64,000 nucleotides of DNA. Origin: an uncultured bacterium (lineage in GTDB: Bacteria > Hydrothermota > Tepidihabitantia > Tepidihabitantales > Tepidihabitantaceae). The translations under genes and the position numbers were made by a program. Under the pieces are notes generated by a model. It worked only from the letters and a program-made list of their open reading frames with translations. It was not told the DNA's origin and searched no databases. The DNA is taken from positions 706 through 64,705 of the forward strand of contig CBDUVZ010000002.1 of NCBI GenBank assembly GCA_965370805.1, given 5' to 3'. Below, in pieces: positions 9,174 to 38,909 of the stretch (the stretch's first letter is position 1; each line of letters starts with the position of its first letter).

Positions 9174-10512
9174 TGTTCCCTCCGCGTTCTGCACTCTGCA
9201 ATCTGCCTTCTGACTTCTCCTCGTGTTCGGGCTTCCTGACCAGCACGGAAGCAATACCGGTTGCCAGTCCCAGGAAAAGCAGGAATCCCCGGTCTCGGAA
9301 GAGCGTGCCGTGACACATCTTGACCACGCTGGCGAGTATGAACGCCAGCACCAGCGATTGAACCAGTCCGGCGCTTCCGCCCGCGCGAGTCAACCTGGCT
9401 GCAGGCAATCGCTTCAACTGGCCGGACGCCGCCCGTGCCAGCAGCCAGCAGAAACCCAGCAGGCCGAGCACCCCGGTTTCCACCAGCAATGCCAGCAGTC
9501 CGTTGTGGATTTCGTACGTCCCGGTGTAGTCAAGCATGTATCCGAGTCCGGGGCCGAGGCCGAGCGGGAACCATTCGGCAATTCGCTCCATCACCGACTG
9601 GAACTGTAGGTGGGTGAACGACCCCCCGCTGCCGACCAGTGCCATGCCGTCAGCAAGCCGGCGGCCGAACACCGATTCGACCAACTGCTCCCCGAAGGCC
9701 CCGATGAGCCCGACCGCGGTCAGACTTAGAACCAGCAGAACCGCATACCCGCGACCGCGACCGCGCAGGAACCCGATGAGCAGTGACGCCAGGACCCAGC
9801 AGCCAATGGCGATTGTCCCGCCCCGCTTGCCCGCGGCAACAACGAAGAACATGCCCGCCATCCCGGCCAGTATGATAAACAGCCGGGACCAGCGGCCCCG
9901 GAAAACGACCCATCCCAGCGCCAGCAGCAGCCCGACTGTGGAGAAACCGTAACTCGCAAGCTGGCCGGTAGCGCGGAACGTACCCCGCACCAGCCATCCT
10001 GCCTGGGCCGCAAACCAGTGCGTACCGGAGAAGAAATCGTGGGCGACAATCACCAGTTGCCAGCACACCCCGACCGCAATCCCTGCCACGAGCATTCTGG
10101 TCAGGGCCGGTGACCGGCTGACATTGTACCCGAACACGAAATAGAGGAACGCCACAATCATCGCCGAAGATGCCGTGACTACCGACATGCCGCCGCCGCT
10201 CACAACCACGCCGACTGCGGCCGAGAACAGAATGGCGAACAGGTAGACAAATCCGGACAAATGGAGCCTGAACTTGGATGAAACCGCCAGACCGACGATA
10301 CCCATCACTACTATCACGTCAACCGGTGCGATACGCTGCAACAGAGAAACGGTCTCCTCCGCGCCGGTGAATGTCCGGCTCAGACTGATAAGTGGCAGCG
10401 CCGCACCGACCAGAAGCATCAGACCCCGCTGCCACTTCGCCGGCGTGTGTTCCGTGTGAACCCGCGGCACGGCAGTATTGCCGGGAAGAAGGACACCAGT
10501 GTCTGCCATCAT
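9151..10512 (-). CDS. O-antigen ligase / polymerase-like membrane protein (Wzy_C/WaaL family)
   Basis: Polytopic membrane protein with the Wzy_C-type loop YEIHNGLLALLVETGVLGLLGF. Confidence 0.7.
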   Translation of the reverse strand: MMADTGVLLPGNTAVPRVHTEHTPAKWQRGLMLLVGAALPLISLSRTFTGAEETVSLLQRIAPVDVIVVMGIVGLAVSSKFRLHLSGFVYLFAILFSAAVGVVVSGGGMSVVTASSAMIVAFLYFVFGYNVSRSPALTRMLVAGIAVGVCWQLVIVAHDFFSGTHWFAAQAGWLVRGTFRATGQLASYGFSTVGLLLALGWVVFRGRWSRLFIILAGMAGMFFVVAAGKRGGTIAIGCWVLASLLIGFLRGRGRGYAVLLVLSLTAVGLIGAFGEQLVESVFGRRLADGMALVGSGGSFTHLQFQSVMERIAEWFPLGLGPGLGYMLDYTGTYEIHNGLLALLVETGVLGLLGFCWLLARAASGQLKRLPAARLTRAGGSAGLVQSLVLAFILASVVKMCHGTLFRDRGFLLFLGLATGIASVLVRKPEHEEKSEGRLQSAERGGNSDTPVRG

Positions 10513-11861
10513 CCGGACAACCCCTGGTTCAGGGCTTCGGGACTCCGGCCCCCGCTCACTTCAGCCGCCCGGCATCGCAGTCTCCTCATCGCGTGGGCGA
10601 CAATGCCCAGGCTGCAGAAAGCGGTCAGGCAATTCGCAATAGCCACCGCCCCGACCGCACCCGCCAGCCCGTGGCCCGGAACAAACAGCAGGCACCCGAC
10701 TGCCGTGCTGCCCAGGGCCAGCGCCACCAGCGGCAACTGGATCCGAATGTAGCGGACCGCGGTTATCACATCAGCCATCAGCGTACTGACATAGAAGAAC
10801 AGCGCCGCTACCATGGCGAACACGAAAACGCCGGTATACGCGGCGTACTCGGCCCGGTACAGGATAGTCAGCATCTGCCGGCCGCCGACCCAGGCCAGGA
10901 CAATGGCAACCACTCCCAGCAGCACGCCGACGCCCACCAGGCGCAGCACCAGCCGGCGGAACCCGCGGGCATTGCCGCTCCAGTAGTACCGGGCGATTCG
11001 CGGTATGGCCGACTGGCCCACAGCCCGCATCACCGTCGACCCGGCTACCTGAAGGTAGGTTATCGCTGCGAAGATACCCAGCGCCCCTTCACCCAGGTGC
11101 CGCTCGACGAAGTACCTCGGGGTGTTGACGGTCAGTGATATCAGCGTCATCACGAACCCGAGCGGCAGCGCCAGCCAGGCCAGACTCCTCAGCTTCTGCC
11201 AGCGCCAGGCAGGCTTGATTGCGGACAGCAGGCTTCTGCCTTCCGACCTGAGCACCACGGCGGTACGGGGAATGTCGAAACAGACCAGTATCAGGGCCCA
11301 GACCGCTGCCAGCCCGATTACGCCCCACAGGAGGCTGCCGGTCAGGTAGAAACAGACCGCGAGCAGCAGGAGTGAAAGCGGCCCCTTGACCATCATCGAT
11401 ACGGCGATGCGGTCCATCCGTTCCCGCTGCTGCAGAAGCCCGTAGAACACGTCGCTGACCGACTCGAACACCTTGGCGAATCCCACAATCAGAATCACCA
11501 GCATCGCCTCGCCCCGATACCCGGATACCAGCACGACACCGACCACTGCCAGCAGGGACAGCGCCGCGGTTATCAGCCGCAGACCGAGGTAGTCGCTGAA
11601 AGCGTATTCCCGCCTGGCGTCGGTTGCCTGGACAACCCGAAGTTGGAGATTGGCGAACATTATTACCGGTGCGGTAACGGCCAGCCCGAGTGCAAATCGG
11701 CCCACCGTTTCGGACGAACCCAGCTTGGCCAGCACCACCAGCATGCCCCACTGGGATGCGGCGTAAATCACGTTCCCGACCAGTGTCCAGGCGAAATTGT
11801 GCCTGAGGCTCAACGGCCCGCCGCGTCCGGACGGCAGATTCTGCATCCCCCGGTTACTCAT
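10509..11861 (-). CDS. wzx: Polysaccharide flippase (Wzx, MOP superfamily)
   Basis: About 12 predicted TM segments with typical Wzx architecture. 4-nt overlap with the downstream gene. Confidence 0.8.
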   Translation of the reverse strand: MSNRGMQNLPSGRGGPLSLRHNFAWTLVGNVIYAASQWGMLVVLAKLGSSETVGRFALGLAVTAPVIMFANLQLRVVQATDARREYAFSDYLGLRLITAALSLLAVVGVVLVSGYRGEAMLVILIVGFAKVFESVSDVFYGLLQQRERMDRIAVSMMVKGPLSLLLLAVCFYLTGSLLWGVIGLAAVWALILVCFDIPRTAVVLRSEGRSLLSAIKPAWRWQKLRSLAWLALPLGFVMTLISLTVNTPRYFVERHLGEGALGIFAAITYLQVAGSTVMRAVGQSAIPRIARYYWSGNARGFRRLVLRLVGVGVLLGVVAIVLAWVGGRQMLTILYRAEYAAYTGVFVFAMVAALFFYVSTLMADVITAVRYIRIQLPLVALALGSTAVGCLLFVPGHGLAGAVGAVAIANCLTAFCSLGIVAHAMRRLRCRAAEVSGGRSPEALNQGLSG

Positions 11862-11906: not shown

Positions 11907-12848
11907 TTATGCTCCTCGCTCAACCAGCAGGCTCAGGCCTTCGGGAAACGAAAGCAACTGCTTGAGCCCGACCTTGCCGGTCAACACCTTGATGCTTGCC
12001 AGTGAGTGCTTTACGTCTCCCGGCCTCGGCGGGTCGAAGATTGGCTCGATGCTCCGGTCCAGCAGCCGGCACAACTCGCTGACCAGGAACTTCAGGGTGT
12101 AGCGCTTGCCCACACCCACGTTGCTCACCAGGAACCCATCAATCTGTGCAGTGCATGCCGCCAGGTTGGCGGCCACCACGTTCGCGACCGGCGTGAAATC
12201 CCGCGACTGTTCGCCGTCACCGTATACTACCGGCTGCCGCCGGTCCCGGATTGCGGTCAGGAACTTCGGAATGACCGCCGCGTACTGGCTCGCCGGGTTC
12301 TGCCGCGGGCCGAACACGTTGAAGTACCGCAGGGCGACCGCTTCCAAGCCATACACCTGGCTGAACACCCGCGCGTAATGCTCACAGGTCAACTTGGACA
12401 CCGCATATGGTGATTTCGGGTTCGGAGTCATCTCCTCGTGTTTGGGCAGGGTCTCCGAGTCACCGTAGATCGAAGAAGAGGAAGCCAGCACCACCCGCCG
12501 AGCCCCGCACTCAATCGCGGCCTTGAGCACATTCAGGGTCCCGGTGATGTTCGCTTCATGGGTAGCGAACGGATCGGCAATCGAGCGCGGCACCGACGGC
12601 AACGCCGCTTGGTGAAGCACGTAATCCACGTCCCGGCACGCGGACATGACCGTAAACGGGTTCCGGATGTCTCCTTCAATCAGGTCGATGTCTTTGAGAA
12701 ACGGCTCGACATTGGACCGTCGGCCGGTAGAGAAGTTATCCAGAACCCGGATGTCCTGCTTCCTGCCGACCAGTTCCTCAACGATGTTCGAGCCGATGAA
12801 TCCGGCTCCCCCGGTAACCAGGTATCGCACGATGCTTCCTCCTCCCAC
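11907..12848 (-). CDS. NAD-dependent nucleotide-sugar epimerase/dehydratase (SDR, UDP-sugar 4-epimerase-like)
   Basis: VTGGAGFIGS Rossmann motif and YAVSK catalytic motif. Confidence 0.85.
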   Translation of the reverse strand: MGGGSIVRYLVTGGAGFIGSNIVEELVGRKQDIRVLDNFSTGRRSNVEPFLKDIDLIEGDIRNPFTVMSACRDVDYVLHQAALPSVPRSIADPFATHEANITGTLNVLKAAIECGARRVVLASSSSIYGDSETLPKHEEMTPNPKSPYAVSKLTCEHYARVFSQVYGLEAVALRYFNVFGPRQNPASQYAAVIPKFLTAIRDRRQPVVYGDGEQSRDFTPVANVVAANLAACTAQIDGFLVSNVGVGKRYTLKFLVSELCRLLDRSIEPIFDPPRPGDVKHSLASIKVLTGKVGLKQLLSFPEGLSLLVERGA

Positions 12849-13046
12849 TGCTCCGCGAGTCGTCCCTTAGGCCGACTCAGTTATCGGTCTGCTGAGGCAT
12901 AGTCCTCAGTTTTCCATCTCACTTGTCGCATCGCAGATACTGACCGAACGGACCCTCTTGCCGCAAGACTGACGCACTGGATTATATCGACAACGCCCGC
13001 CAATGTCAAACAGTTATGGAGGAAATCCGCCTCCGGGGGTGCGACA

Positions 13047-13105: not shown

Positions 13106-13134
13106 TTGACAGTGCACGCTGAATTGTGTAATAT
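13106..13134 (+). promoter_or_regulatory. Sigma70-type promoter TTGACA-17-TAATAT with extended -10 (TGTG) for the giant T9SS gene
   Basis: Consensus hexamers and spacing read directly. TSS predicted ~13141, giving a ~120-nt leader before AAGGAGG-ATG at 13262. Confidence 0.55.
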
Positions 13135-13261
13135 CCTCTAGCTTGGGCTCTTGGGTTCGGTCCCAGCATCATATCGTTACATCTGTCGAGAAGCGATGGT
13201 ACCCGGCTTCCGGGTTCAAGCTTCTGGGGCGCAGGATGACACTGAAAAGAAGGAGGTCTGC

Positions 13262-16200
13262 ATGTTCATACGAACGCTGCTCACCGGCTGCCTGGTCATT
13301 ACGTTGGCTGGGGCCGTTTCCGTCGAGGCGCCATTCGTCGAAGTCCCTGGTCGTATTATGCCCGATGGCGGCGGTGGGCCGGATGCGTGGGGCTACACCT
13401 GGCTGGACAGCGACACAAGTTGTCCGGGCGCACCGGTCTACAACTGGATCGATATCACCCGGTTGCCGGGAGTCATCCACTGCTCCACACTGGTGGATGA
13501 CAATGTTGCCGGTCCGCTCTCGATGGGGATTGAGTTTCCTCTCTACTGGCATACCTACTCCAATTTCTACCTCGGTTCAAACGGCTACATCTCATTTGAC
13601 GACGACTACAACGCATCGCATCCTTTTCGAGATATCCCCAATGTACTGCACCCCAACAATGTAATCGCCCCGCTGCTGTCCGACCTCAATCCTGGGAATC
13701 TGCCGGCGCGCAAGGGTTACTTCTACTGGCACAACGACACCCGGGATACGTTCATCATCCAGTGCGAAAGCGTTCCGTTCTGGGGCGTGCCTACGAGCAA
13801 CAACACATTTCAGATTATCCTGTCCCAGTCCGACAGCACTATCACCTACCAGTACAAAGAGCAGACCGGGGCGCCTTACCTCGGTTGGACTCCGGGGAAC
13901 GCCACCGTCGGGATTGAGAATATCGTCGGGCTGGTCGGGCTCCGTTACCTCTACGGCAACACGCCGTCACAGAATGACATCCATCCCGGGCTGGCGATTC
14001 GGTTCACGCCGCCGGCCACGACGAGTCACCGATTCCACGACATGATGGTCAAATGGGCGATGAACTCGAAATCCGGGGGGATGTTCCTCCATGACGCCCC
14101 GATTCAGCCGGCCAGTATCAGGGCCTGCTTCCTGAATGCCGGCAACCAGATTGCCTACGACGATTCGATGTTCGCCGAGATCCGGGACCTGGGGGGCACT
14201 CTGGTGTTCGCGGAGTCGGCCTGGACCGAGGAAATGCGGGTCGGCGAGCAAGTCATCCATACCTTCGGTGACTGGACGCCGCCGGACACCGGGTTCTACA
14301 TCCTGAAGGTCAAGTCGCGAATGGTAGGAGACGAATGGGCCGGGGACGACTCCGTGCTCGTCGAGATCCACGTTGTCAACTACACCTTCCCGACCACACT
14401 CTACTACGATGCGGACCGCACCGGTTCGGTCAGCCTGTCCGGGCCTCACGGGTTCGGGACCAAGTTCATTCCGCCCCGCTTCCCGGTCCGTATCGACGAG
14501 CTCTACTACTACTTCACGAGTGCCGGAGCCCAGTGCACTGTCTACGTCTATGACGACGACGGGCCCAACGGCGCGCCCGGGACCGTACTCCTCGACTCGG
14601 TCATTACCACGGTCGCCGGTTGGAACTCAGTCGACATCCAGGCCTGCAGCGTCAACGTCCAGTCCGGCGGCTTCTACGTCTGCTACATGACAAACACCGC
14701 CGGCAACCCCCGCATCGGACTCGACAACACGCTCCCGCACGCCCGGCGCAGTCTCGAGTTCACCGGCCGCTGGGCGGAATTCCGGTGGAATGAAACCCAG
14801 GACTTCCTGATTCGAGCCAAAGTAGGCCAGGGTACGCCCACCCATGATATCGCGGTCACCGAGATGCTCCAGCCCTCCGGCAACCACGACTCCGGCGACG
14901 TTGTCATACCTATCGCCCGCATTCAGAACAACGGCATGTTCCACGAAAACGGGTTCAACGTCACCTTCACGATAACCGGCTCAGGCTACCAGCAGACACG
15001 CACCTGCTCCCTCAACCGCGGCACCTCGGACACCGTCGCCTTCCCCCCCTGGACCGCGATGCCCGGGTACGGCTACGTCCCCCGATGCTCCATCCACCTC
15101 GCCGCCGACGTCAACCCCGTCAACGACACCATCAGCGGCGCACCCTTTGACGTCTACGGCCGCGACGTCGGTACGGCCGCTATCCTCGCGCCCCGCGACA
15201 CTACCAACTACGGGGACGTTATCACCCCAGAGGCAGAAATACTCAACTACGGCAACAGCGCCGAAGACTTCCTCGTCCGCTTCAAGATACCCGGCGCAGG
15301 CTATCAAGACTCGGCCAACGTCCACCTCGGAGTCGGCGAAAGTGACACGGTTACCTTCGACACCTGGCTCGCGGACACGGTCGGAAATCCCCCCGCCATG
15401 ACCTGCTCCACCGAACTCGGCACCGACATGAACCCCGACAACGACCGTGCCACCGCCCCCCTCTTCATCCGCTACGCTGATGTCGGGGCCATCCAAATCC
15501 TCCAGCCCGTCGGCAGCTACGACACCCTCACCACAATCATCCCCTCCGCCCGGGTCACCAACGTCGGCAACGCGCCCGAGACCTTCAAGGCATTCCTCAC
15601 GGTCAACGACCCCACAGTCGATGCCCCTGTCTACTCCGAATCGCTCAATGTCCTACTCCACCCCGACGTCGATTCGACGGTGATCTTCCCGCCCACACGC
15701 TTCCACGTCATCGGCACCCATACGGCCAAATGCTCGGTCCATGTGGGATGGGAACAAGACTGGACCAACAACGTCATCGACAACGACTTCCAGATCATCC
15801 CCACCATCCCGCACAACGTCACCGCCCAACGCATCCTCGCCCCGACCGGGACGATCGACAGCGGCGCAGTAGTAACGCCAAGCGTTATCGTCCGCAACAC
15901 AGGACTCAGCACCGAAACCTTCGACGTCCACTTCACCATCGACCCCGGATACCACGACTCGGCAACCGTCTCCGCCCTCCCCCCCGCCACATCGGACACG
16001 GTAGAATTCGCGGACTGGACCGCCCAACCCCGCGACAGCACAACCGCCACCGCCTGGACCCTACTCATCGGCGACGAAATGCCGGAAGACGATACGACCA
16101 GCCTCCGGCTCCTCGTCCAGGTCCGCGACGTCGGGGTTGAGCAGGTCATCTCACCGGTGGGTACGCTGCCGGTGGATACCATCGTCTATCCCGAGTGCCG

Positions 16201-18058
16201 AGTCCGCAACTACGGCAACACGACCGAGACCTTCGACGTCGAATTCCGCATCGGCCACTACCTCGGCACGGCCACCGCGACCGCACTCGCACCCGGCAAC
16301 ACCCAAGACCTCGTGATGAGCCAGCCCTACACCACCCAAGTCGGCGTATGGCTCGACCGCGCCCGCACCACCCTCACCGGTGACATCAACCCCGCCAACG
16401 ACCTCGCACTCGACACCCTCTGGGTCCCCGGCCCCGTCACCCACGACGTCGGCGTCGACGAAATACTCGCCCCAGTCGGCACCGTCAACCCCGGCCAGAC
16501 CATCACCCCCAGCGCCCGCGTCGCCAACTACGGCGACCAGACCGAGACCTTCCGGGCTTACTTCGCAATCTACGACACGACCACCGACGCCCAAGTCTAC
16601 GACGAATCGCTCCACGTCACCCTCGCCCCAGTCACGGACACAACCCTCCCCTACCCCGACGTCAGCTTCACACTCCAAGGCCCCTACACCACCCACTGCT
16701 CCACCTACCTCCCCACCGACCAGAACCAACTCAACAACGTCAAAACCGGCCAATTCCACGTCAAACTCCAACTCCCCTGGGACCCCGGCTGGCACGAAGT
16801 CCAACCCATACCACTCCAGCCCAGCGGCAAACCAGTCAAACGCGGCGCTTGGGCCACCCACAACCACGGCGACGACCTCATCTACACCGCCAAAGGCTAC
16901 AAAACCACCGACTACTACTCCTACAACCCCCTCGCCAACACCTGGAATACCCTCACCGGCATGCCCTACCAACGCCACACCAACCCCAAATGGGCCAGAA
17001 AAGTCCCCCGCAAAGGCTCCAAAGGCGCAGCCGACGGCGACAACTACATCTACGTCACCCAAGGCAACAACACCCTCGGATTCTGGCGCTACGACATCGA
17101 CCTCGACTCCTGGACAACACTCCACGACATCCCCGCCGGACCCAACAACAAGAAAGTCAAAGGCGGCACCGACCTCGCCTACCTAGTCCGCGACGACGGC
17201 CAAGCCTACATCTACCTCCTCAAAGGCTACCGCACCGAATTCTACCGCTACCACATCACAGCCAACACCTGGCAAACCCTCGCCCCCGCCCCCACCGGCA
17301 AACGCGCCAAATGGGGCAGAGGCTCCTGGCTCATCGCCCAAAACCAAACCGCCACCACCCTCTACGCCCACAAAGCCAAATACAACGAACTCTGGTCCTA
17401 CGACGTCCCCGCCGACTCCTGGGACCAACAACTCACCGGCATGCCCTACGTCGGAATGCAAGGCCGCAAAAAGAAATCCAAAGACGGCGGCTCCGCCGAC
17501 TGGTACGACAGCGAAATCTACGCCCTCAAAGGCGGCAACACCAACGAATTCTGGAAGTACACCCCAACCACCGACACCTGGACCGAGCTCGATTCGATGC
17601 CGACGATGGGCTCCACCGGCAGGAAGAAACGAGTCAAGTACGGCGCTGACCTCGTCAACTACGCCGGCTACCCCGCGTTCTTCTCGCTCAAAGGCAACAA
17701 GACGCGCGAAATGTGGCGCTACTACTTCGGCTCGGCGGTGCTGGCTGTTCAGCCTCGCCCCGGTCGCGGCGGCGTCCTGGCCGAACCGTCATCGGGCATT
17801 CGGCAATCGTCATTCGACATTACCCCCAACCCGCTTGCGGGTGGATTCGCCACGCTGCGCTACAGCCTGCCCAGGGTCGGACACGCAACGGCGAGCATCT
17901 ACGACGCTACGGGTCGTGCCGTCACACAACAGACGGTACTTGCCGGTCGTACCGGGGCTGTCAATCTCGATCTGCGTTCGCTCAGCGCGGGAGTGTACCT
18001 GGTGCGGTTCGAAGCCGGCGGCTTCAGCACCACGAGAAAGCTTGTACTGCAGCGTTAG
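13262..18058 (+). CDS. Giant secreted T9SS cargo protein (~1598 aa): signal peptide, N-terminal choice-of-anchor/MAM-like domain, ~9 CARDB-like Ig repeats, 4 Lys-rich repeats, T9SS C-terminal sorting domain
   Basis: Start at ATG 13262 (MFIRTLLTGCLVITLAGA signal peptide) after AAGGAGG. Repeats of N[YH]G...ETF...F.I..GY.DSA.V.L..G.SDTV.F..W are CARDB-like. C-terminus ...GVYLVRFEAGGFSTTRKLVLQR is T9SS-CTD-like. Confidence 0.8.
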   Translation: MFIRTLLTGCLVITLAGAVSVEAPFVEVPGRIMPDGGGGPDAWGYTWLDSDTSCPGAPVYNWIDITRLPGVIHCSTLVDDNVAGPLSMGIEFPLYWHTYSNFYLGSNGYISFDDDYNASHPFRDIPNVLHPNNVIAPLLSDLNPGNLPARKGYFYWHNDTRDTFIIQCESVPFWGVPTSNNTFQIILSQSDSTITYQYKEQTGAPYLGWTPGNATVGIENIVGLVGLRYLYGNTPSQNDIHPGLAIRFTPPATTSHRFHDMMVKWAMNSKSGGMFLHDAPIQPASIRACFLNAGNQIAYDDSMFAEIRDLGGTLVFAESAWTEEMRVGEQVIHTFGDWTPPDTGFYILKVKSRMVGDEWAGDDSVLVEIHVVNYTFPTTLYYDADRTGSVSLSGPHGFGTKFIPPRFPVRIDELYYYFTSAGAQCTVYVYDDDGPNGAPGTVLLDSVITTVAGWNSVDIQACSVNVQSGGFYVCYMTNTAGNPRIGLDNTLPHARRSLEFTGRWAEFRWNETQDFLIRAKVGQGTPTHDIAVTEMLQPSGNHDSGDVVIPIARIQNNGMFHENGFNVTFTITGSGYQQTRTCSLNRGTSDTVAFPPWTAMPGYGYVPRCSIHLAADVNPVNDTISGAPFDVYGRDVGTAAILAPRDTTNYGDVITPEAEILNYGNSAEDFLVRFKIPGAGYQDSANVHLGVGESDTVTFDTWLADTVGNPPAMTCSTELGTDMNPDNDRATAPLFIRYADVGAIQILQPVGSYDTLTTIIPSARVTNVGNAPETFKAFLTVNDPTVDAPVYSESLNVLLHPDVDSTVIFPPTRFHVIGTHTAKCSVHVGWEQDWTNNVIDNDFQIIPTIPHNVTAQRILAPTGTIDSGAVVTPSVIVRNTGLSTETFDVHFTIDPGYHDSATVSALPPATSDTVEFADWTAQPRDSTTATAWTLLIGDEMPEDDTTSLRLLVQVRDVGVEQVISPVGTLPVDTIVYPECRVRNYGNTTETFDVEFRIGHYLGTATATALAPGNTQDLVMSQPYTTQVGVWLDRARTTLTGDINPANDLALDTLWVPGPVTHDVGVDEILAPVGTVNPGQTITPSARVANYGDQTETFRAYFAIYDTTTDAQVYDESLHVTLAPVTDTTLPYPDVSFTLQGPYTTHCSTYLPTDQNQLNNVKTGQFHVKLQLPWDPGWHEVQPIPLQPSGKPVKRGAWATHNHGDDLIYTAKGYKTTDYYSYNPLANTWNTLTGMPYQRHTNPKWARKVPRKGSKGAADGDNYIYVTQGNNTLGFWRYDIDLDSWTTLHDIPAGPNNKKVKGGTDLAYLVRDDGQAYIYLLKGYRTEFYRYHITANTWQTLAPAPTGKRAKWGRGSWLIAQNQTATTLYAHKAKYNELWSYDVPADSWDQQLTGMPYVGMQGRKKKSKDGGSADWYDSEIYALKGGNTNEFWKYTPTTDTWTELDSMPTMGSTGRKKRVKYGADLVNYAGYPAFFSLKGNKTREMWRYYFGSAVLAVQPRPGRGGVLAEPSSGIRQSSFDITPNPLAGGFATLRYSLPRVGHATASIYDATGRAVTQQTVLAGRTGAVNLDLRSLSAGVYLVRFEAGGFSTTRKLVLQR
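17788..17820. repeat. Heptanucleotide REP-like element, copy D, in frame inside the CDS at the CTD junction
   Basis: catcgggcattcggcaatcgtcattcgacatt encodes SSGIRQSSFDI immediately before the CTD start (TPNPLAGGF). Confidence 0.6.
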
Positions 18059-18073
18059 TCGCTGAGAACACTT

Positions 18074-18105
18074 GAGAAGGGACGGCAGTGATGCCGTCCC
18101 TTCTC
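18074..18105. terminator. Bidirectional hairpin terminator (14-bp perfect stem) between convergent genes
   Basis: gagaagggacggca-gtga-tgccgtcccttctc. No obvious U-tract, which is common in GC-rich genomes. Confidence 0.55.
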
Positions 18106-18121
18106 AGGAATGTGGCCGGAA

Positions 18122-19096
18122 CTACTCGTCGCGCTGGTTTCTCTTCTTGTCGAACAGGTCAAGGAAGCGGTCTTCGTAGAGTTCAAACAGGCCCCAGCGG
18201 TCAAGCTGTTGTTTGAGCAGCCCGGCTTTCGAGCGGTCGTGCTGGACAAGTTCAAAAAGGCTCTCGATCCGGTCCATCGCTTCGTGGGGCTCCACTTCGT
18301 GGGGCCCGGGCTGTTCTCCGTCTTCGGCGGCTCCTTCCCCGGCCCGGATGTCCTGTTGGGAACCCTGTCTCATAGCCTGGAGCGCGGCGTTGACCCTTGA
18401 TTCGAACTCACCCAGCAGCTTATCGACTTCGGCTATCGAGCGGTCGATTCCGGTCATGTCAACGGCCGTATTGAGGATCCGCTCGAATACACGCACAATG
18501 GCCTTCGAGGACTTGGGGTTCGGGGTGTGAACCGCATACTGCGGCATGGTAGCCAGGAAGCAGGCGGCAGAAAGGTTCCTTGACCCTGCCAGCCCGAGCA
18601 GGAGACCGTTCAGGCCGGAGATGCGGCCCTGAGCCAGGGGTTTGACACCGTAGCTGGCGAAACTTCCTTTCAACCGGTCGCCGGTAGCCACGCCGAATAC
18701 TTCGACCGAGTCGCGGAAACTCATGGGCACCGCGAAGGCGGCCCCGGTGTAGACGGTCCTGACTCCGTGCCGCTGGGCGAAATCCAGCAGCTCATCGGCA
18801 ATGGCCATTCCCGCCTCGCCTCCGGCCTGGCTCTCACCTTCGAAGATCAGAACCGGCGGGTCCTCAATGAGATAGATGTTATGGTCCGGCGGCGACGGTA
18901 TCCGGCCGATGCCGTTTTCGACATCGACCGCCTCGGGAAAGAAGTACCGGGTCACGTCGATCCGGGCGCATAACGATCCCTTGAGTTTCTTCCGCAGGTA
19001 GGCGGCTGCCCCGAAGCCGACGTTACCCATGCCGGGCCAACCGGCAATCAGCACCGGGATGTCGGACCTGATTTCCTTCTCTGTTCTTATCGGCAT
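18122..19096 (-). CDS. PAC2-family protein (proteasome-assembly-chaperone-like)
   Basis: N-terminal IPVLIAGWPGMGNVGFGAAAYL matches the PAC2-family signature. Confidence 0.55.
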   Translation of the reverse strand: MPIRTEKEIRSDIPVLIAGWPGMGNVGFGAAAYLRKKLKGSLCARIDVTRYFFPEAVDVENGIGRIPSPPDHNIYLIEDPPVLIFEGESQAGGEAGMAIADELLDFAQRHGVRTVYTGAAFAVPMSFRDSVEVFGVATGDRLKGSFASYGVKPLAQGRISGLNGLLLGLAGSRNLSAACFLATMPQYAVHTPNPKSSKAIVRVFERILNTAVDMTGIDRSIAEVDKLLGEFESRVNAALQAMRQGSQQDIRAGEGAAEDGEQPGPHEVEPHEAMDRIESLFELVQHDRSKAGLLKQQLDRWGLFELYEDRFLDLFDKKRNQRDE

Positions 19097-23698: not shown

Positions 23699-26600
23699 CT
23701 ACCGGTCGAGCAGCAGCACTTTGTGGGTTGAGGTCCGGTCCTCAGACCTGACCAGCAGGAAGTGGACGCCGGATGCCAAACCTCTGACCGGAAGATTCAG
23801 ATTATGCTTCCCCGGGCCAAGCTGAGTCTTCGGGAAGGCTGTAACCTTCCGGCCAGCCGTGTTGTAGAGGCTGAAGGTAACGTCGCTGACGCTGGGGATT
23901 TCGACGGAGAGCCTGATGCGTCCACTCGTCACCGGGTTCTCCAGCAACCTGACTTTGTAGGCGTACAGTTCCTCGGTCGATGATTCCGCGATGCCGATAG
24001 GAAGAAGCTCGTATATCTGGAACCCGGCATAGTAGTCGGCTACGTAGATGTACGGGCTCACCGCAGCCACTCCGCGGGTTGAGCCTGGGGTGTTGTAGTA
24101 GCCGACTCCGTGCGGATTGACCGGGTCAGACACATCAATTACCCACAGTCCACCGGTTCTGCAGGCGACATGGGCGTACTGGCTATCGACTGCTACATCT
24201 ACGGTGTAGCTCGAACCAGACCAGTGGCCGACGTCACAGGGATTTGTCGGGTCAGACACATCGATCATGTGCAGGCCGCCTCGATAGCTTGCGACATAGG
24301 CGTACCGGCCGCGAACCGCGACGCCTCTGGTGTCGGAAATCTGACAGTAACCAACCTCATGTGGATTTGCCGGGTCCGACACGTCGATTACCCGCAAACC
24401 AGCGTCGTCAGCAGCCACATAGGCGTAGTCGCCTTGCACTGCGACGCCTTCGGCATTGTCCGGGGTCTGACAAGACCCAACTTCCTGTGGATTCCGAGGA
24501 TTGGATATGTCAATCACCCGCAAACCGGCGTCGTCAGCAGCCACATAGGCATGTTGGTTCTGGACCGCGACACTGTTGGCGTCATCCGGTGTAGTGCAGT
24601 AGCCCAAGGCTTGAGGATTTGCCGGGTCGGACACATCGACAATACCCAGCCCGGCATCGTCAGCCGCCAGATAGGCGAGCTGACCTATGACCGTCAGGCC
24701 GAACACTCTGTCCGGCGTGGAACAGTGTCCGACCTCTCGTGGTTTGGTGGAGTCGGCAAGATCAAGGATACGCAGGCCGTCATGGTAGTTGGCCAGGTAG
24801 GCGTAGTGACCTGCCACCGCGACATCCCTGGTTCTATCAGGAACGTCGAACTGCCCGACGAGATGGGGGCCACGTGGGTCCGGTACGCTGACTACCCACA
24901 GGCCGCCGTCTTCGTCGGCAACGTACGCATGCGAGTCGAAAGCCGCCACGGCGCAGGCTGAGCCATCAAGCTGGCAATAGCCGACTTCACTCGGGCTTGC
25001 CGGGTCGGACACATCCACCAACCACAAGCCGGCCTCGTAGTCTGCTACATAGGCGAACATGCCTCTGATTGCCACACCGAGGGCTCTGTCCGGTACCGGG
25101 CAACAGCCTGTCTCCCGAGGGTTTGCCGGGTCGGAGACATCTATCACCCGCAGTCCGTTCTCCCAGCTAGGAACATAAGCGAAGTCGCCCTCCACCCAGA
25201 CGTCAGCGGCGTGGCTTGCAGTGGTGCACTGGCCGACTCTGTGCGGGTCTGTCGGGTCGGAGACATCAATCACCCGCAGGCCGTTCAAGTAGTCGGCAAC
25301 GTAGGCGTACTGTCCTTCGACCGCAACACCACAGGGGTCGTCAAAGGCATCACAGCGTCCGACCCCGGTCGGGTTTGCCGGGTCGGATACATCCACTACC
25401 CACAATCCGTCGGAGCAGTCAGTCACGTAGGCATATTGACCCTTGATCGCCACACTGGTGGCTTCCTCCGGGTCACGGCACCAACCGACCTCAAACGGCC
25501 CGGTTGGGTCAGTGATATCGATAACGCATAGTCCTTCCTCCTCGGCCGCCAGATAGGCATATCCGTTTTCCACGGCCACGCCCTGGACGAAACCCGGGAT
25601 GTGGCAGGAACCGACTTCATGTGGGTCGGTTGGGTCGGAGATATCGATCACCCGCAACCCCCAGTCCTCGTCGACGACGTAGGCGTACTGGCCCTGGAAT
25701 GCGACATCAACGGCCATGCCCGGAATCAAACAGTAGCCTACTTCCTGGGGGCCGGTCGGGCAGGACACATCGATTACTTGCAGGCCGTTCTGGTAGTCGG
25801 CGACATAGGCGTGCTGACCTGTAATCGCGACGCTCTGCGCGTCAACGATGTCCTCAAAGCAGCCGATCTCCACCGGTTCTCCCGGGTTCGACGCGTCGAT
25901 GATTCGGAGGCCCTCGTCGCTGGCCGCTACGTAAATGTGCCAGCCAACGGCCTCGACGCCAATAGCGTCGCTTGGTGTTTCACAATGGCCGATTTCCCGT
26001 GGATTGGAGGGATCGGCGATGCTGATGACCCGCAGACCTTCAGCCAAGTCAGCTACGTACGCAAACCAGGCTGCGACCGTGACGTCACAGGCACAATCCT
26101 GTGTCTCGCAGACACCCACTTCGTACGGGTTTGACGGGTCCGATACGTCGACTACCTGCAGGCCTTCATTCCCACCGGCCACATAAGCATACTGGCCGCG
26201 AACCGCTACTCCGTAGGCGTAATCTGGAGCAACGGCGGAGCCGACCTCGTGGGGGTGCACCGGATCAGACACATCGACCACGCAGAGGCCGGAGTTGCCG
26301 TTGGCCAGGTAGGCAAGGTTCCCCACAACCACGACTTCCTCGGTGTAGCTGCTCGTGCCGTGCCCACCGAGCCTCGTCGGTTCCGACGCTGATGAAACAT
26401 CCCAGATATCGAGCCCTGCGGATTTCGCCGCCACGTACAGCCTCTGTGTTGAGCTTTCGTAGAAGAGGCCCTTGACCACACCACGGGTACGGATCGGCTC
26501 ACCGGTCTCTCGGGGTTGGTTGAGATTGGAAACGTCGAGGATATACACCGCGCCGCCGGACCCGCAGAACGCGAGTTGTCGGACGGTATCGACGGCGACC

Positions 26601-26719
26601 GCATAGCACGGCCCGAACGGCCAGTTGCCGATGAATCTGACATTCAGGGAATCGCTGCCAACAGCCGTTCCACAGACCACCAGAATCAGGCCGAAAACCG
26701 CCAAGACTTTCTTCTTCAT
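23699..26719 (-). CDS. LVIVD-repeat beta-propeller protein with T9SS C-terminal sorting domain
   Basis: About 20 repeats of AY.VAV.G.YAYVAD...GL.VIDVSDP..P.EVG. Start at MKKKVLAVFGLILVV signal peptide. C-terminus is T9SS-CTD-like. Confidence 0.8.
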   Translation of the reverse strand: MKKKVLAVFGLILVVCGTAVGSDSLNVRFIGNWPFGPCYAVAVDTVRQLAFCGSGGAVYILDVSNLNQPRETGEPIRTRGVVKGLFYESSTQRLYVAAKSAGLDIWDVSSASEPTRLGGHGTSSYTEEVVVVGNLAYLANGNSGLCVVDVSDPVHPHEVGSAVAPDYAYGVAVRGQYAYVAGGNEGLQVVDVSDPSNPYEVGVCETQDCACDVTVAAWFAYVADLAEGLRVISIADPSNPREIGHCETPSDAIGVEAVGWHIYVAASDEGLRIIDASNPGEPVEIGCFEDIVDAQSVAITGQHAYVADYQNGLQVIDVSCPTGPQEVGYCLIPGMAVDVAFQGQYAYVVDEDWGLRVIDISDPTDPHEVGSCHIPGFVQGVAVENGYAYLAAEEEGLCVIDITDPTGPFEVGWCRDPEEATSVAIKGQYAYVTDCSDGLWVVDVSDPANPTGVGRCDAFDDPCGVAVEGQYAYVADYLNGLRVIDVSDPTDPHRVGQCTTASHAADVWVEGDFAYVPSWENGLRVIDVSDPANPRETGCCPVPDRALGVAIRGMFAYVADYEAGLWLVDVSDPASPSEVGYCQLDGSACAVAAFDSHAYVADEDGGLWVVSVPDPRGPHLVGQFDVPDRTRDVAVAGHYAYLANYHDGLRILDLADSTKPREVGHCSTPDRVFGLTVIGQLAYLAADDAGLGIVDVSDPANPQALGYCTTPDDANSVAVQNQHAYVAADDAGLRVIDISNPRNPQEVGSCQTPDNAEGVAVQGDYAYVAADDAGLRVIDVSDPANPHEVGYCQISDTRGVAVRGRYAYVASYRGGLHMIDVSDPTNPCDVGHWSGSSYTVDVAVDSQYAHVACRTGGLWVIDVSDPVNPHGVGYYNTPGSTRGVAAVSPYIYVADYYAGFQIYELLPIGIAESSTEELYAYKVRLLENPVTSGRIRLSVEIPSVSDVTFSLYNTAGRKVTAFPKTQLGPGKHNLNLPVRGLASGVHFLLVRSEDRTSTHKVLLLDR

Positions 26720-27681: not shown

Positions 27682-27739
27682 AAGAAAGAGAGGAGCCGGC
27701 AACCCATGCTGCCGGCTCCTGAAGGTCAGGCGGAACGAG

Positions 27740-30520
27740 CTACTCGACGATCAGCTTCCCGGTGCCGGACCATGTCCCCTGCTCGGCACGAACGAAGTAG
27801 ATCCCGGGCGACATGCCCTGCAGGTTCAGAGTGTATCCCGCGAAGCTGGGGATGGCCGTCTGTGTTCGCAGCAGCTTGCCGTCGGCATCGAAGACTTGCA
27901 CTATTGCGGCATCGGTTCCGGACAGGGCAATGCTCGCCTGGGTACGGGCCGGATTGGGCTGGATCACGAGTCGGGAACCGAACGGTATAGGTTGAAGCAG
28001 CGCCGGTTCGCGTTCGGTGCGGATGCCAGGACCGGTGCTGTAGTTGTAGCGCCAGAACTCCATGGTCTTGTTGCCCTTGAGAGCGAAAAAGAGGCCGTTG
28101 CCCAGGCTGACGAGGTCCGCGCCGTATTTCACGCGCTTTTTCCTGCCGGTGGAGCCGAACGACGGCATGGTGTCGAGTTCGTACCACGAGTCGGCCCAGG
28201 GCGAGTACTGCCAGAATTCCTGCGTGTTGCCACCCTTCAGGCAGAACATCTGGTTGATGAGCCAGGCGCCTGAGCCACCGTCCTTGAGTTTCTTGCGCCG
28301 GCCCGCCCTCCCGACGAACGGCATGTCGGCGAGTTGCTCAAGCCAGCTGCCATTCGCGACGTCGTAGGCAAAGGTCTCATTGTACTTGGACTTGCAGCAG
28401 TAGATGGTGCCGGCGCCATCATGGACAATGAAAGAGCCGTACTTGTACTTGTTCTTGCCCGAGTTGCCCAGTGGAGCCGAAGTCAGAGTACTGTCCCACA
28501 CGCCGGTGACGGTATTGTAGCGGTAGAACTCGTTCTTGTAGCCCTTCAGCAGATAGACCCAGCCGGTGTCGCCTAGGACAAGGTACTGCATCTTGGTACC
28601 GCCCTTGATTTTCTTCCCGGTTGCGCCGAGCGGGATGTTAGCCATTTGTGTCCACGCAGTGTCGGTCGTGCCGTAACGCCAGAACTCGACCGTGTTGTTG
28701 CCCTTGACTGCGTAAATGTGGTGGCCGCCGTCATTGCACAAGGCCCCGCCTTTGTAGACCTGCTTGTCGCTTGGACCGTCCGGAACGGATTTCATCTGCT
28801 CCCAGGCGTCAACTGCCACGTTGTACCGGTAGAAATCCCCGGTCTTATTGCCCTTGAGTGCGTAGATGAACCAACCATCAGACTGACTTGTGAGGGTAAG
28901 CGCTCCGCCCCGTTTGACTTCCTTGTTGCTGGGCGGCTTGGGCATGGGTGCCATTTCGGTCCAGCCGGGCGGTATCGGCGGGGCATCAACAGTGAAAAGA
29001 GCCTGGGAGGCATCGTTGGATGGAACCGCATCGCCGGCCAGCTCGGTAGAGCAGGAAGCCACGTAGCTGCCGAGCGTTGCGTTCCAGTTCAGAAAGGTGA
29101 CGTCCTGGGATGCTCTGGGCTGGAGGCCGTTGATGTAGATCGAGTCGATGTAGACAACAGAACCTCCTCGGCGTATCCGGAACTTGACGCCGAAGCTTTC
29201 GGTGAACCCGCCGTAGTTGCGGATACGGGCGCTCGGCAGGACTGGGCCGGGATAGATACTTCCGGTGGGTACCAGGATAGCTTCCACACCGACATTGTGG
29301 TGCGGGGGACCAACTACAAAGGAAGATCGGAGGATATCGTTCCGGGTATCCATGTCGTCGCTGTACCCGGTGCTGCAGGCCATGGCAATCGTGCCCAGCG
29401 TCTCGGCCTGCCATTCACGGAATGTCACGTCGCGAGTCACCCTGGGTACCAGGTTCTCGACGAGTACGCTGTCCAGCCAGGCCTGTATCCGGAAGTAGCA
29501 GTAGAACGCGGAAATAGTCTCGGTGCCGAAGTTCTTCACTCGTGCCTGAGGCGTAACGACCATGCCCGAGTCGACGGTGTCGGGTGGTAAAGTGATCCGG
29601 AAGACTCCGGCGTCCCGCACGACCACAGTGACGGCTGTATCAGCCCGGTCATTGGCCGGATTGATGTCGCCGGTGAGCATGGTTCTGCATAAAACATGGT
29701 TGACTCCACGCTCGGTGGCTGTCCAGTCACGAAAAGCGATACGACGGGTGCTGCCAGGACCCAGGTCGTCGACCAGAGTGGTGTCGGTGTATCCAGAGCC
29801 AATTGTCATTCTCGTCCAGAACGTCTCGGCACTGGCACCGTAGTTCTTGACCGTCGCCTCGGGTCTTACTACGTGATTCGAGTCAACCGCACCGATGGGC
29901 GTCTCGACTGTCAGGACCCCCACGTCAGACGAGGAGTTCATGCCGGTGACGCTGACGTCGTCTATTGCCCAGAAGGTGATGTGTTCGGTGATGCCGTCGA
30001 ACGCCCAGGCCAGGCGGACGTTCGATCTGTTCGCGGCCCAGGGAAGCGCAAGAACCTGCAGCTCCGGCCCGATGATACGCTGGTAGTAATCAAAGACCAC
30101 GTGTTCGAAGGGACCGCCATCCACCGAGCCGACGAGTGCGATCCGGTAGGGTTGGTCTTCCCCGCCGCCGTAGTACGTGGAGCACCGCAGGACGACGAGG
30201 TTGAAATCAGAGCAGTTAATAGACGGACTGATGAGGCTGTCAACGTTCTGTATTTCAGGCGGCTGTGAGTGCAACAGCGCGTACGGTGTCGCGTTGTCCG
30301 TCCACGGGTCCAGCTCGAGGTCAGGAGCCCGGTGCCAGTCATTGCTGCTGGTATCAGCAGGGCCGAATACGATTCGCCAGCCCGCGGGTGGTTGGACGGT
30401 CGACCAGGAACCGTTGAAGTTCTCGGAAAGCAGAATATCCTGGGCCGGGGCTGCTGCGGGAACGAACAATGCCGCCAGCAGTAACGCCGCCAGGGTCCTT
30501 AGAGTAATGAAGGATTGCAT
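27740..30520 (-). CDS. Giant secreted T9SS cargo protein paralog (~926 aa): signal peptide, choice-of-anchor-J/MAM-like N-domain, CARDB-like repeats, 4 Lys-rich repeats, T9SS CTD
   Basis: Start set at MQSFITLRTLAALLLAALFVPAAAPAQ (ATG 30520, AGGAAAT RBS). The longer listed ORF adds 123 low-complexity codons. The C-terminal half is collinear with the C-terminal half of 13262-18058. Confidence 0.8.
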   Translation of the reverse strand: MQSFITLRTLAALLLAALFVPAAAPAQDILLSENFNGSWSTVQPPAGWRIVFGPADTSSNDWHRAPDLELDPWTDNATPYALLHSQPPEIQNVDSLISPSINCSDFNLVVLRCSTYYGGGEDQPYRIALVGSVDGGPFEHVVFDYYQRIIGPELQVLALPWAANRSNVRLAWAFDGITEHITFWAIDDVSVTGMNSSSDVGVLTVETPIGAVDSNHVVRPEATVKNYGASAETFWTRMTIGSGYTDTTLVDDLGPGSTRRIAFRDWTATERGVNHVLCRTMLTGDINPANDRADTAVTVVVRDAGVFRITLPPDTVDSGMVVTPQARVKNFGTETISAFYCYFRIQAWLDSVLVENLVPRVTRDVTFREWQAETLGTIAMACSTGYSDDMDTRNDILRSSFVVGPPHHNVGVEAILVPTGSIYPGPVLPSARIRNYGGFTESFGVKFRIRRGGSVVYIDSIYINGLQPRASQDVTFLNWNATLGSYVASCSTELAGDAVPSNDASQALFTVDAPPIPPGWTEMAPMPKPPSNKEVKRGGALTLTSQSDGWFIYALKGNKTGDFYRYNVAVDAWEQMKSVPDGPSDKQVYKGGALCNDGGHHIYAVKGNNTVEFWRYGTTDTAWTQMANIPLGATGKKIKGGTKMQYLVLGDTGWVYLLKGYKNEFYRYNTVTGVWDSTLTSAPLGNSGKNKYKYGSFIVHDGAGTIYCCKSKYNETFAYDVANGSWLEQLADMPFVGRAGRRKKLKDGGSGAWLINQMFCLKGGNTQEFWQYSPWADSWYELDTMPSFGSTGRKKRVKYGADLVSLGNGLFFALKGNKTMEFWRYNYSTGPGIRTEREPALLQPIPFGSRLVIQPNPARTQASIALSGTDAAIVQVFDADGKLLRTQTAIPSFAGYTLNLQGMSPGIYFVRAEQGTWSGTGKLIVE

Positions 30521-30558
30521 GGCTATTTCCTGTACTTGGTCAGTATGCCTTTCATGAA

Positions 30559-30586
30559 ACATAGCCGATAGATGCCGGTCGTCAAT
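30559..30586 (-). promoter_or_regulatory. Sigma70-type promoter TTGACG-16-TATGTT (minus strand) for the giant paralog
   Basis: Read from the reverse complement. The -35 overlaps the stop of the dipeptidase gene. Confidence 0.4.
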
Positions 30587-38744: not shown

Positions 38745-38909
38745 GGTGACTTCAAGCTGTGAGTTGTATGATGATCAGGAACTGAAATACCAACACCGGC
38801 GTTGAGCCTGTCGGGCAGTCCCGAGGCTTGCGCGGATGCACACAATCGGGTAAAGTCCAAACTGAAGACAAATCAGTATGTGTTTGAGATGAACTGGAGA
38901 GCGTAGACC

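Follow-up and report, generated by a model that had tools for sequence, protein, structure and literature searches.

What are two very large, predicted surface proteins of an uncultured bacterium built from, and is the Lys-rich repeat module that both carry near the C-terminus a new fold or a familiar one? We addressed this question for a 64,000-nucleotide stretch of one contig, hereafter the window, in which a first-pass annotation had described two paralogous T9SS cargo proteins with arrays of CARDB-like Ig domains. It had further read their C-terminal module as four ~55-aa repeats that were not a standard named repeat and might form a new beta-propeller or adhesin blade family.

Two paralogous T9SS cargo proteins

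Both open reading frames were confirmed at their annotated positions. ORF A encodes, in order, a predicted signal peptide, a three-domain head, six CARDB-like units, a Kelch propeller, a linker, and a T9SS C-terminal sorting domain (CTD):

13106..13134, plus strand: promoter-like site TTGACA-17-TAATAT, consensus match only (10/12)
13250..13256, plus strand: Shine-Dalgarno AAGGAGG, 5 nt before the ATG at 13262, read from the sequence
13262..18058, plus strand: ORF A, 1598 aa, ATG at 13262, stop at 18056-18058
13262..13330, plus strand: predicted Sec signal peptide MFIRTLLTGCLVITLAGAVSVEA, read from the translation
13337..14848, plus strand: head (aa 26-529), with a NIDO-like beta-sandwich, a divergent CARDB-like unit, and a lectin-like jelly roll
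14846..16780, plus strand: six tandem CARDB-like Ig units (Pfam CARDB, 41.5 bits; unit HMM)
16772..17740, plus strand: predicted six-bladed Kelch beta-propeller (aa 1171-1493; Kelch_6, 65.1 bits; pLDDT 96.5, pTM 0.94)
17819..18055, plus strand: T9SS type A CTD (aa 1520-1598; TIGR04183, PF18962)
18071..18108, strand not assigned: 17-bp perfect hairpin between the convergent ORF A and PAC2 gene (81-nt fold of -43 kcal/mol, z -6.1)

ORF B is shorter and consists of a predicted signal peptide, an N-domain, three CARDB-like units, a Kelch propeller, and a T9SS CTD:

30558..30585, minus strand: weak promoter-like site (9/12)
27740..30520, minus strand: ORF B, 926 aa
29927..30442, minus strand: N-domain (aa 27-198), sub-threshold match to choice-of-anchor J (NF038128)
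28970..29926, minus strand: three CARDB-like units (aa 199-302, 303-409, and 409-517; Pfam CARDB, 41.1 bits; unit HMM)
28028..28978, minus strand: predicted six-bladed Kelch propeller (aa 515-831; tblastn to module A, blades align; Kelch_3)
27746..27961, minus strand: T9SS type A CTD (aa 854-925; TIGR04183, PF18962)
27691..27720, minus strand: intrinsic-terminator-like hairpin just past the stop (13 pairs, then a T-run)

A public protein library holds a 1598-aa protein identical to that of ORF A (P0241). Typical n-h-c regions of putative signal peptides can be read by eye in both translations. The paralogy of the two proteins was borne out, and it lies in their C-terminal ~750 aa, where aa 858-1597 of A and aa 205-926 of B are 39% identical (E 9e-145). 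Both CTDs scored above the cutoffs of TIGR04183 (43.8 bits for A and 35.1 for B, cutoff 23) and PF18962 (32.6 and 34.7 bits, cutoff 27). The CARDB-like arrays likewise stood, with the Pfam CARDB scores listed above exceeding the cutoff of 22.7 bits, and the sequence motifs quoted in the first-pass annotation are present. Pfam CARDB (PF07705; PDB 3idu) matches only one or two units per protein, however, and most were recognized only with a unit HMM built in the present analysis. With this HMM, the tandem units of A (aa 529-634, 635-739, 740-851, 852-955, 956-1061, and 1062-1173) were each found at E values of 1e-37 to 1e-40. One more CARDB-like unit lies in the head of A (aa 270-377), ahead of the jelly roll (aa 378-528), for a total of seven. 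Matches to the head were only lectin-like, CARDB, and jelly-roll, with no enzyme fold among them; galactose oxidase appeared among the matches to the head model only at rank 48.

The N-terminal parts are a different matter. A choice-of-anchor/MAM-like N-domain had been proposed for both proteins, but we found no homology between the two N-termini (BLASTP E 0.56; 0.1% hhalign probability for the A-head profile against the B N-domain). NF038128 gave no match to A and a weak one to B (E 0.032; 14.4 bits against a cutoff of 30), albeit over the whole model (1-162 of 162). From this one sub-threshold match, the N-domain of B is possibly choice-of-anchor J or MAM-like; a search for its homologues returned none at E<=0.001.

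The near-perfect promoter attributed to A could be retained in part. A promoter-like site is present upstream of A and has a perfect consensus -35. The 12/12 site in the same intergenic region (13009-12981) lies on the minus strand, where it serves the divergent epimerase/polysaccharide operon rather than ORF A. The high expression as a surface adhesin or S-layer-like protein that had been proposed for A would thus draw only on a 10/12 match. The ~128 nt from the promoter-like site to the ATG of A gave no Rfam match to a riboswitch or leader RNA at E<=1. Downstream of A, the hairpin at 18071..18108 is probably a terminator; it has no U-run, which is why a consensus terminator scan missed it. 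The idea of an operon or conserved neighborhood was dropped, since the window flanks hold unrelated housekeeping genes (an epimerase/flippase polysaccharide cluster, PAC2, MurJ, DeoC, an aminotransferase, and an M19 dipeptidase). No partner gene was common to these flanks and those of one relative in a complete chromosome of candidate division WOR-3, and the window ORFs scanned included none of the T9SS machinery genes (PorU, PorV, SprA, and others).

The C-terminal module is a Kelch beta-propeller

In place of four repeats, we found six of 50-56 aa in the module of A and likewise in that of B; the two motifs quoted for the module turned out to be one repeat in two registers. Pfam Kelch models matched A well above their thresholds: Kelch_6 reached 52.3 bits on the full-length protein and 65.1 bits (E 4e-18) on the module alone (cutoff 25.3), Kelch_3 gave 36.1 bits (cutoff 22), and Kelch_4 gave 32.7 bits (cutoff 21.6). 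For full-length B, Kelch matches fell just under threshold (21.3 against 22), and its module alone passed with Kelch_3 (25.9 against 22). The two modules are 46% identical (tblastn, E 4e-88), with all six blades aligned. Across the family described below, Kelch_6 matched 69 of 71 members.

Structure prediction agreed with these assignments. AlphaFold (AF2) modeled the module as a six-bladed propeller, in which DSSP assigned four strands to most of the blades and fewer to the rest, and in which the N-terminal strand of the propeller closes blade 6 (velcro closure). The top Foldseek matches of this model in the PDB were the Kelch propellers SAKe6, KEAP1, KLHL20, and NS1-BP (E ~1e-14 to 1e-15, probability 1.00, TM 0.6-0.74). 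In a PDB search with the family profile, the propeller matches were all Kelch proteins, among them muskelin, nitrile-specifier protein, and KEAP1; the CTD structures of gingipain and mirolase were matched as well. The module conserves a Trp, an aromatic pair, a Pro, and a basic residue, and the Kelch GG doublet survives only in blade 5, the other five blades having K-G at this place. By its sequence and its predicted model, the module of A and B is thus a six-bladed Kelch beta-propeller, an ordinary fold and not a new repeat. The earlier guess of a beta-propeller was right, while that of a new family was not. An HMM match to Kelch had itself been named as the result that would make the module ordinary, and it is this match that was obtained, with AlphaFold and Foldseek in agreement.

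A C-terminal cassette in a large WOR-3 family

Relatives of the Kelch module were abundant, comprising 1053 representative clusters at E<=1e-30. A CTD is present in 133 of the top 140 representatives; in about 125 of the 140, the propeller ends 91-114 aa short of the C-terminus, and in 122 it is preceded by CARDB-like units. A few family members carry the propeller far from the C-terminus or have no detectable CTD. Minimal members such as P0016 and P0018 consist of a signal peptide, the Kelch propeller, and the CTD only, and across the family the heads above the propeller vary. A genome scan yielded 403 relatives of the module; the best 80 of these came from MAGs titled WOR-3 or unclassified, except for one labeled archaeon, and the number of copies in a genome ranged from several to ten or more.

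The module is a large and unnamed Kelch subfamily, and ORFs A and B appear to be two old paralogues in a large multigene family of T9SS cargo proteins. We define this family by its C-terminal cassette: 0 to ~10 CARDB-like Ig units, one six-bladed Kelch propeller, a ~25-aa linker, and a type A CTD. The cassette, the Kelch identity of the module, and the mechanism proposed below jointly give the best explanation of the locus, one that we hold with good confidence.

A basic propeller face, proposed to lie near the anchor

The propeller differs sharply in charge from the proteins that carry it. Across the family, its median pI is 9.14 with a net charge of +8, compared with a median pI of 4.63 and -4.1 charges per 100 aa for the remainder of the proteins. 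Both the D-A loops and the LKGnKT segments contain conserved basic columns. We placed these columns by combining column-wise charge conservation with strand topology, which located the conserved Lys/Arg sites in the D-A loops and at the junction of strand B and the B-C loop, i.e., on the canonical Kelch ligand face. Kelch motifs normally have one basic residue per blade before strand A as a structural feature, and part of the conserved Lys/Arg signal may be structural for this reason.

These data suggest the following mechanism. The family proteins would first take the Sec route, and their CTD would then direct them through the T9SS. By analogy with Bacteroidota, the CTD would then be cleaved, leaving a new C-terminus ~25 residues past the propeller that is tethered at the cell surface; with so short a distance to the tether, the propeller would be the domain closest to the membrane. 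The CARDB-like units would act as a stalk from which the variable heads, lectin-like beta-sandwiches without a catalytic role, project outward to serve as binding domains. Through the cationic face formed by its D-A and B-C loops, the propeller would bind one anionic ligand shared by the whole family. The likeliest candidate is anionic LPS or exopolysaccharide of the cell itself; environmental acidic glycans or eDNA are the alternative. From charge and topology, we thus infer that the propeller may be an anchor-proximal module that binds an anionic ligand.

A bolder version would make the basic propeller a WOR-3-specific docking "pedestal," whose Lys-rich face binds the cell's own anionic LPS or exopolysaccharide noncovalently and onto which any head can be grafted. 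We regard this version as speculative and rather unlikely. If true, such docking would supplement or replace the covalent A-LPS attachment of Bacteroidota and would constitute a new mode of surface retention for T9SS cargo, beyond that phylum.

Other roles for the propeller

The cargo proteins could instead be abundant and lattice-forming, S-layer-like proteins, with the propeller driving lateral self-assembly. ORF A is indeed preceded by a promoter-like site of its own, whose -35 is perfect, and by a strong ribosome-binding site, and a strong hairpin follows it; self-assembly is stated for designed Kelch (SAKe) propellers in the titles of their PDB records, and the S-layer of Tannerella is formed by T9SS cargo. 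But the several to ten or more paralogues per genome are divergent, with very different lengths and heads, and this number and diversity are unlike a single dominant S-layer protein. The promoter-like site of A, moreover, agrees with the consensus at only 10 of 12 positions, in an organism with uncharacterized promoters. We consider a lattice role improbable.

A surface-displayed Kelch-type enzyme, such as a sialic-acid mutarotase (NanM-like) or a galactose-oxidase-like oxidase, also fits the data poorly. Two relatives are labeled "N-acetylneuraminic acid mutarotase" by JGI, the cyclically permuted mutarotase model TIGR03548 matched weakly (E 0.005), PF24996 (NANM) matched one of 71 members, and an acidic sugar would suit the basic face. 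The TIGR03548 score of 16 bits is nonetheless far from its cutoff of 243, and the NANM match is confined to that single member. Galactose oxidase has seven blades, not six, and was absent from the top 50 Foldseek matches of the propeller. Near-invariant columns of the module are mostly Trp, Gly, Pro, aromatic, or Lys, and its few polar columns (Asn, His, Glu, Ser, and Thr) are scattered and form no recognizable catalytic set. We rejected the NanM and galactose oxidase readings on the blade number and on scores far under the cutoffs, and an enzymatic propeller seems very improbable.

The reading of the module as a new family of repeats or blades outside Kelch, which its K-G doublets, its unusually Lys-rich D-A loops, and the lack of a module-specific model in NCBIfam might suggest, is refuted to near certainty by Kelch_6, Kelch_3, and Kelch_4 scores above threshold, by the breadth of Kelch_6 matches in the family, and by structural and profile matches to KEAP1, designed Kelch propellers, and other Kelch proteins.

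Comparison with known systems

The Kelch identity of the module settles the lead of an unnamed repeat as a false one. The analysis also documents that an uncultured phylum very commonly builds surface proteins from one cassette, which in more than 1000 sequence clusters joins CARDB-like units to a basic propeller of the Kelch type and a T9SS CTD, under interchangeable heads. This is knowledge at the level of annotation and not a new kind of system. A literature search found no paper that links WOR-3 with the T9SS or describes a Kelch T9SS cargo.

The module resembles known Kelch propellers (Kelch_1 to Kelch_6; KEAP1, KLHL20, NS1-BP, and SAKe6) in its velcro closure and in its six blades of ~50 aa, where strand B ends in Gly, strand C holds an aromatic pair, strand D has a conserved Trp, and the D-A loop contains Pro and a basic residue. 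It is only 15-21% identical in sequence to solved Kelch domains. Unlike them, its D-A loops bear extra Lys/Arg runs (KKVKGG, KKSKDGG, and KKRVKxG), it is predicted to be extracellular and directly precedes a T9SS CTD in the same protein, and all of its named relatives come from WOR-3.

With the T9SS type A cargo of Bacteroidota (gingipains etc.), ORFs A and B share a putative signal peptide, a passenger built of modules that include Ig-like domains, and a TIGR04183/PF18962 CTD. Here, however, the host is WOR-3, and the CTD is adjoined by a Kelch propeller and not by an Ig-like domain; it is from Bacteroidota, not from WOR-3, that cleavage of the CTD and attachment to A-LPS are known. The closest counterpart of the head of A (aa 26-529) is a conserved ~600-aa family of WOR-3 T9SS cargo (for example, P0157, P0197, and P0222), to which the head is 40-44% identical over 96-99% of its own length and with which it has in common an invariant GGPDxxGYxWxDSD motif. 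In that family, the A-head unit makes up the body of the protein and the CTD follows directly, whereas ORF A has six CARDB-like units plus the Kelch propeller inserted after the head, ahead of the CTD.

Gene models and domain organization

Two open reading frames of the window, ORF A and ORF B, encode proteins with a Lys-rich repeat region (hereafter, the module) ahead of a T9SS type A C-terminal sorting domain (CTD). The genes and the signals around them are as follows:

13262-18058, plus strand: ORF A, 1598 aa; frame open from 13151, ATG at 13262
27740-30520, minus strand: ORF B, 926 aa; ATG 61 nt past the stop codon of an M19 dipeptidase gene
13106-13134, plus strand: promoter-like site of ORF A, 10/12 consensus match
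12981-13009, minus strand: perfect 12/12 sigma-70 consensus (TTGACA-17-TATAAT), facing the divergent epimerase/polysaccharide-synthesis operon
11907-12848, 10509-11861, and 2055-4241: operon members (epimerase, Polysacc_synt flippase, and Wzc-like GNVR/P-loop protein, respectively)
18071-18108: perfect GC-rich 17-bp hairpin without U-run, between the convergent ORF A and PAC2-family gene (18122-19096)
27720-27691: terminator-like hairpin of ORF B, which also has a promoter-like site scoring 9/12

The ATG of ORF A is preceded by AAGGAGG (13250-13256) and matches the choice of gene callers, since an identical 1598-aa protein is present in the public representative library (P0241; P0 labels denote proteins of this library). 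Judged from sequence, both genes look monocistronic, and the hairpin behind ORF A could act as a bidirectional terminator. The domain layout, with CARDB-like unit borders set by an HMM that was built on the repeat units, is:

ORF A: signal peptide, head (aa 26-529), six CARDB-like units, Kelch module (1171-1493), ~25-aa linker, CTD (1520-1598)
CARDB-like units of A: aa 270-377 (divergent), 529-634, 635-739, 740-851, 852-955, 956-1061, 1062-1173
ORF B: signal peptide, ~170-aa N-domain, three CARDB-like units, Kelch module (515-831), CTD (854-925)
CARDB-like units of B: aa 199-302, 303-409, 409-517

Within the window, the module and the CARDB-like units were confined to A and B (tblastn). Both proteins scored above the Pfam CARDB, PF18962, and TIGR04183 thresholds, in agreement with the first-pass annotation of T9SS cargo with CARDB-like units. 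The paralogy that it proposed is real for the C-terminal halves, as BLASTP aligned A 858-1597 with B 205-926 at 39% identity (E 9e-145). The modules are 46% identical to each other, versus 74% between A and its nearest outside relative and 54% between B and its own, and the pair are old paralogues rather than products of a recent duplication. The N-terminal domains, proposed to be common to both, are not shared (BLASTP E 0.56; hhalign probability 0.1% when the B N-domain was compared with the family profile of the A head). For the B N-domain (aa 27-198), a choice-of-anchor J match spanned the whole model but stayed sub-threshold (E 0.032; 14.4 bits versus 30), and the word-indexed search found no relatives.

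A T9SS-type CTD or CTD-like tail also terminates at least six further ORFs of the window:

23699-26737, minus strand: CTD or CTD-like tail
31699-33093, plus strand: CTD or CTD-like tail
42442-43818, minus strand: CTD by tblastn similarity to that of A only, no Pfam CTD
43828-46494, minus strand: CTD by tblastn similarity to that of A only, no Pfam CTD
53387-55078, plus strand: CTD or CTD-like tail
55540-56919, plus strand: CTD or CTD-like tail

Other beta-propellers occur in four of these six ORFs (18 LVIVD repeats, YNCE/lactonase-type propellers, FG-GAP repeats); the organism appears to build its secreted proteins generally as a propeller with a CTD behind it. Two minus-strand ORFs, 38775-40745 (656 aa) and 40661-41872 (403 aa), had no Pfam match at E ≤ 0.001; opposite-strand ORFs overlap both, leaving their true coding strand uncertain.

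The module is a Kelch propeller

The module had been described as four copies of a repeat without a standard name, possibly a new beta-propeller or adhesin blade family, though one that a significant Kelch HMM match would show to be ordinary. Split at its conserved Trp, it contains six repeats of 50 to 56 aa in A and in B, and the two quoted motifs are a single repeat in two registers. Kelch_6 (cutoff 25.3) gave 52.3 bits for A at full length and 65.1 bits for its isolated module, and A also exceeded the cutoffs of Kelch_3 (36.1 versus 22) and Kelch_4 (32.7 versus 21.6); the isolated B module passed that of Kelch_3 (25.9 versus 22), and Kelch_6 matched 69 of the 71 aligned family members. A PDB-sequence profile search led to the Kelch domains of muskelin, nitrile-specifier protein, and KEAP1. 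AlphaFold2, run on the 71-sequence alignment, returned an all-beta, six-bladed model (pLDDT 96.5, pTM 0.94), in which most blades had four strands by DSSP and the remaining ones fewer, and in which the last blade is closed by an N-terminal strand that includes W7. Foldseek matched this model to designed SAKe6 propellers and to the Kelch domains of KEAP1, KLHL20, and NS1-BP in the PDB (E ~1e-14 to 1e-15, probability 1.00, TM 0.6-0.74). The propeller thus stood and its novelty did not, since the Kelch HMM matches that would make it ordinary were obtained: a new non-Kelch family is refuted by the Kelch_6 and Foldseek matches, and we regard the assignment to a Kelch propeller subfamily as practically certain. 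Strictly, the module is an unnamed subfamily of a known Kelch kind, recognized by standard Pfam models; many relatives already carry precomputed Kelch matches, and NCBIfam holds no model specific to it.

Family, taxonomy, and heads

For the module, the word-indexed search yielded 284 relatives, many of them nameless; those with an organism name came from WOR-3 or unclassified "bacterium" MAGs and were mostly annotated as "T9SS type A sorting domain-containing protein." An exhaustive search gave 3025 matches at E ≤ 1e-3; at E ≤ 1e-30, there were 1053 representative clusters. Local HMMs, run on the top 140 representatives, placed the module in all 140, a CTD in 133, at least one CARDB-like unit upstream of the module in 122 (range, 0 to 10 units), and an A-type head in only 5; in about 125, the module ended 91 to 114 aa from the C-terminus. 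Minimal members consist of signal peptide, Kelch, and CTD only (P0016, 397 aa; P0018, 400 aa), so the propeller suffices as a displayed domain on its own. The giant relatives P0263 (4208 aa) and P0349 (1971 aa) carry several tandem propellers of the subfamily, given their 22 and 12 matched Kelch stretches; no CTD was detected in either, and both depart from the rule of one propeller before the CTD.

Scanning species-representative genomes gave 403 relatives; the 80 best lay in MAGs titled WOR-3 or unclassified, except one labeled archaeon. Copy numbers were high: one MAG had at least 10, and the complete chromosome CP070680.1 had at least 4. The archaeon-labeled record (L063; CP070794.1, "archaeon isolate bin1429 chromosome," 648 kb, 317886-326785) holds an ORF with three CARDB units and a Kelch region 51% identical to the module of A; it is probably a mislabeled or chimeric bin, while horizontal transfer may be an alternative source. 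Our literature search found no paper on Kelch T9SS cargo and none on T9SS in WOR-3.

At E ≤ 1e-5, the 504-aa head of A had 685 homologues. The best 120 of them (P0121-P0240) were almost all 597- to 616-aa proteins made of head plus T9SS CTD, and every organism-named one among these came from WOR-3. The family shows ~40% identity and has many invariant positions, among them a GGPDxxGYxWxDSD motif near the N-terminus; such conservation, together with a nearly constant length, suggests that this ~600-aa protein matters at the cell surface across the phylum. Structural matches to parts of the head included PHR domains and viral jelly rolls, with no enzyme fold and no whole-module PDB match. The head is itself a conserved unit, and ORF A is thus a fusion of two cargo types, each common alone in WOR-3. 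Its full architecture recurs clearly in P0275, P0358, and P0368, and with a more fragmented head match in P0331.

A candidate role for the cationic face

Across 138 family members, the propeller had a median pI of 9.14 and a net charge of +8, versus a median pI of 4.63 and -4.1 charges per 100 aa for the N-terminal remainder. The columns in which K/R reaches at least 60% belong to the D-A loops, directly ahead of strand A (VK.G, KKVKGG, KKSKDGG, KKRVKxG), and to the strand B/B-C loop segment (LKGnKT); in four-stranded antiparallel blade geometry, D-A and B-C loops necessarily exit on one common face. Ahead of the type A CTD, at a fixed distance of ~25 residues, sits a propeller with a conserved cationic loop face; N-terminal to the propeller are an Ig-like stalk of variable length and interchangeable, noncatalytic beta-sandwich heads.

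By the Bacteroidota T9SS paradigm, these proteins would undergo Sec export and then CTD-dependent translocation, after which the CTD would be removed and the new C-terminus tethered at the surface, setting the propeller beside the outer membrane. Because of this placement and its cationic face, the propeller would most likely bind a constant anionic ligand, for which the cell's own LPS or exopolysaccharide would be the first choice, with acidic glycans of the environment or eDNA as alternatives, while the stalk would present variable binding heads. We give this anionic-ligand, anchor-proximal role somewhat less than an even chance. ORF A divergently adjoins the polysaccharide-synthesis cluster (Wzc-like GNVR/P-loop protein, flippase, epimerase), a neighborhood compatible with an envelope ligand without proving it. 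That the basic propeller might be a phylum-specific envelope-docking pedestal for T9SS cargo seems unlikely. A putative abundant S-layer-like protein is argued against by the many divergent paralogues per genome, unlike a single lattice protein. The supposedly near-perfect promoter of A, cited in its favor, is a promoter-like site with only a 10/12 match, and the 12/12 site within this intergenic region faces away from A. A Kelch-type enzyme is disfavored by mutarotase models far under their cutoffs and by nearly invariant columns with no recognizable catalytic set.

The anionic-ligand reading would place binding on the face that KEAP1 uses, where the Nrf2 peptide is bound by the D-A/B-C loop side. 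One basic residue per blade ahead of strand A belongs to the ordinary Kelch motif; the extra Lys/Arg runs and K for G in the GG doublet are particular to the subfamily.
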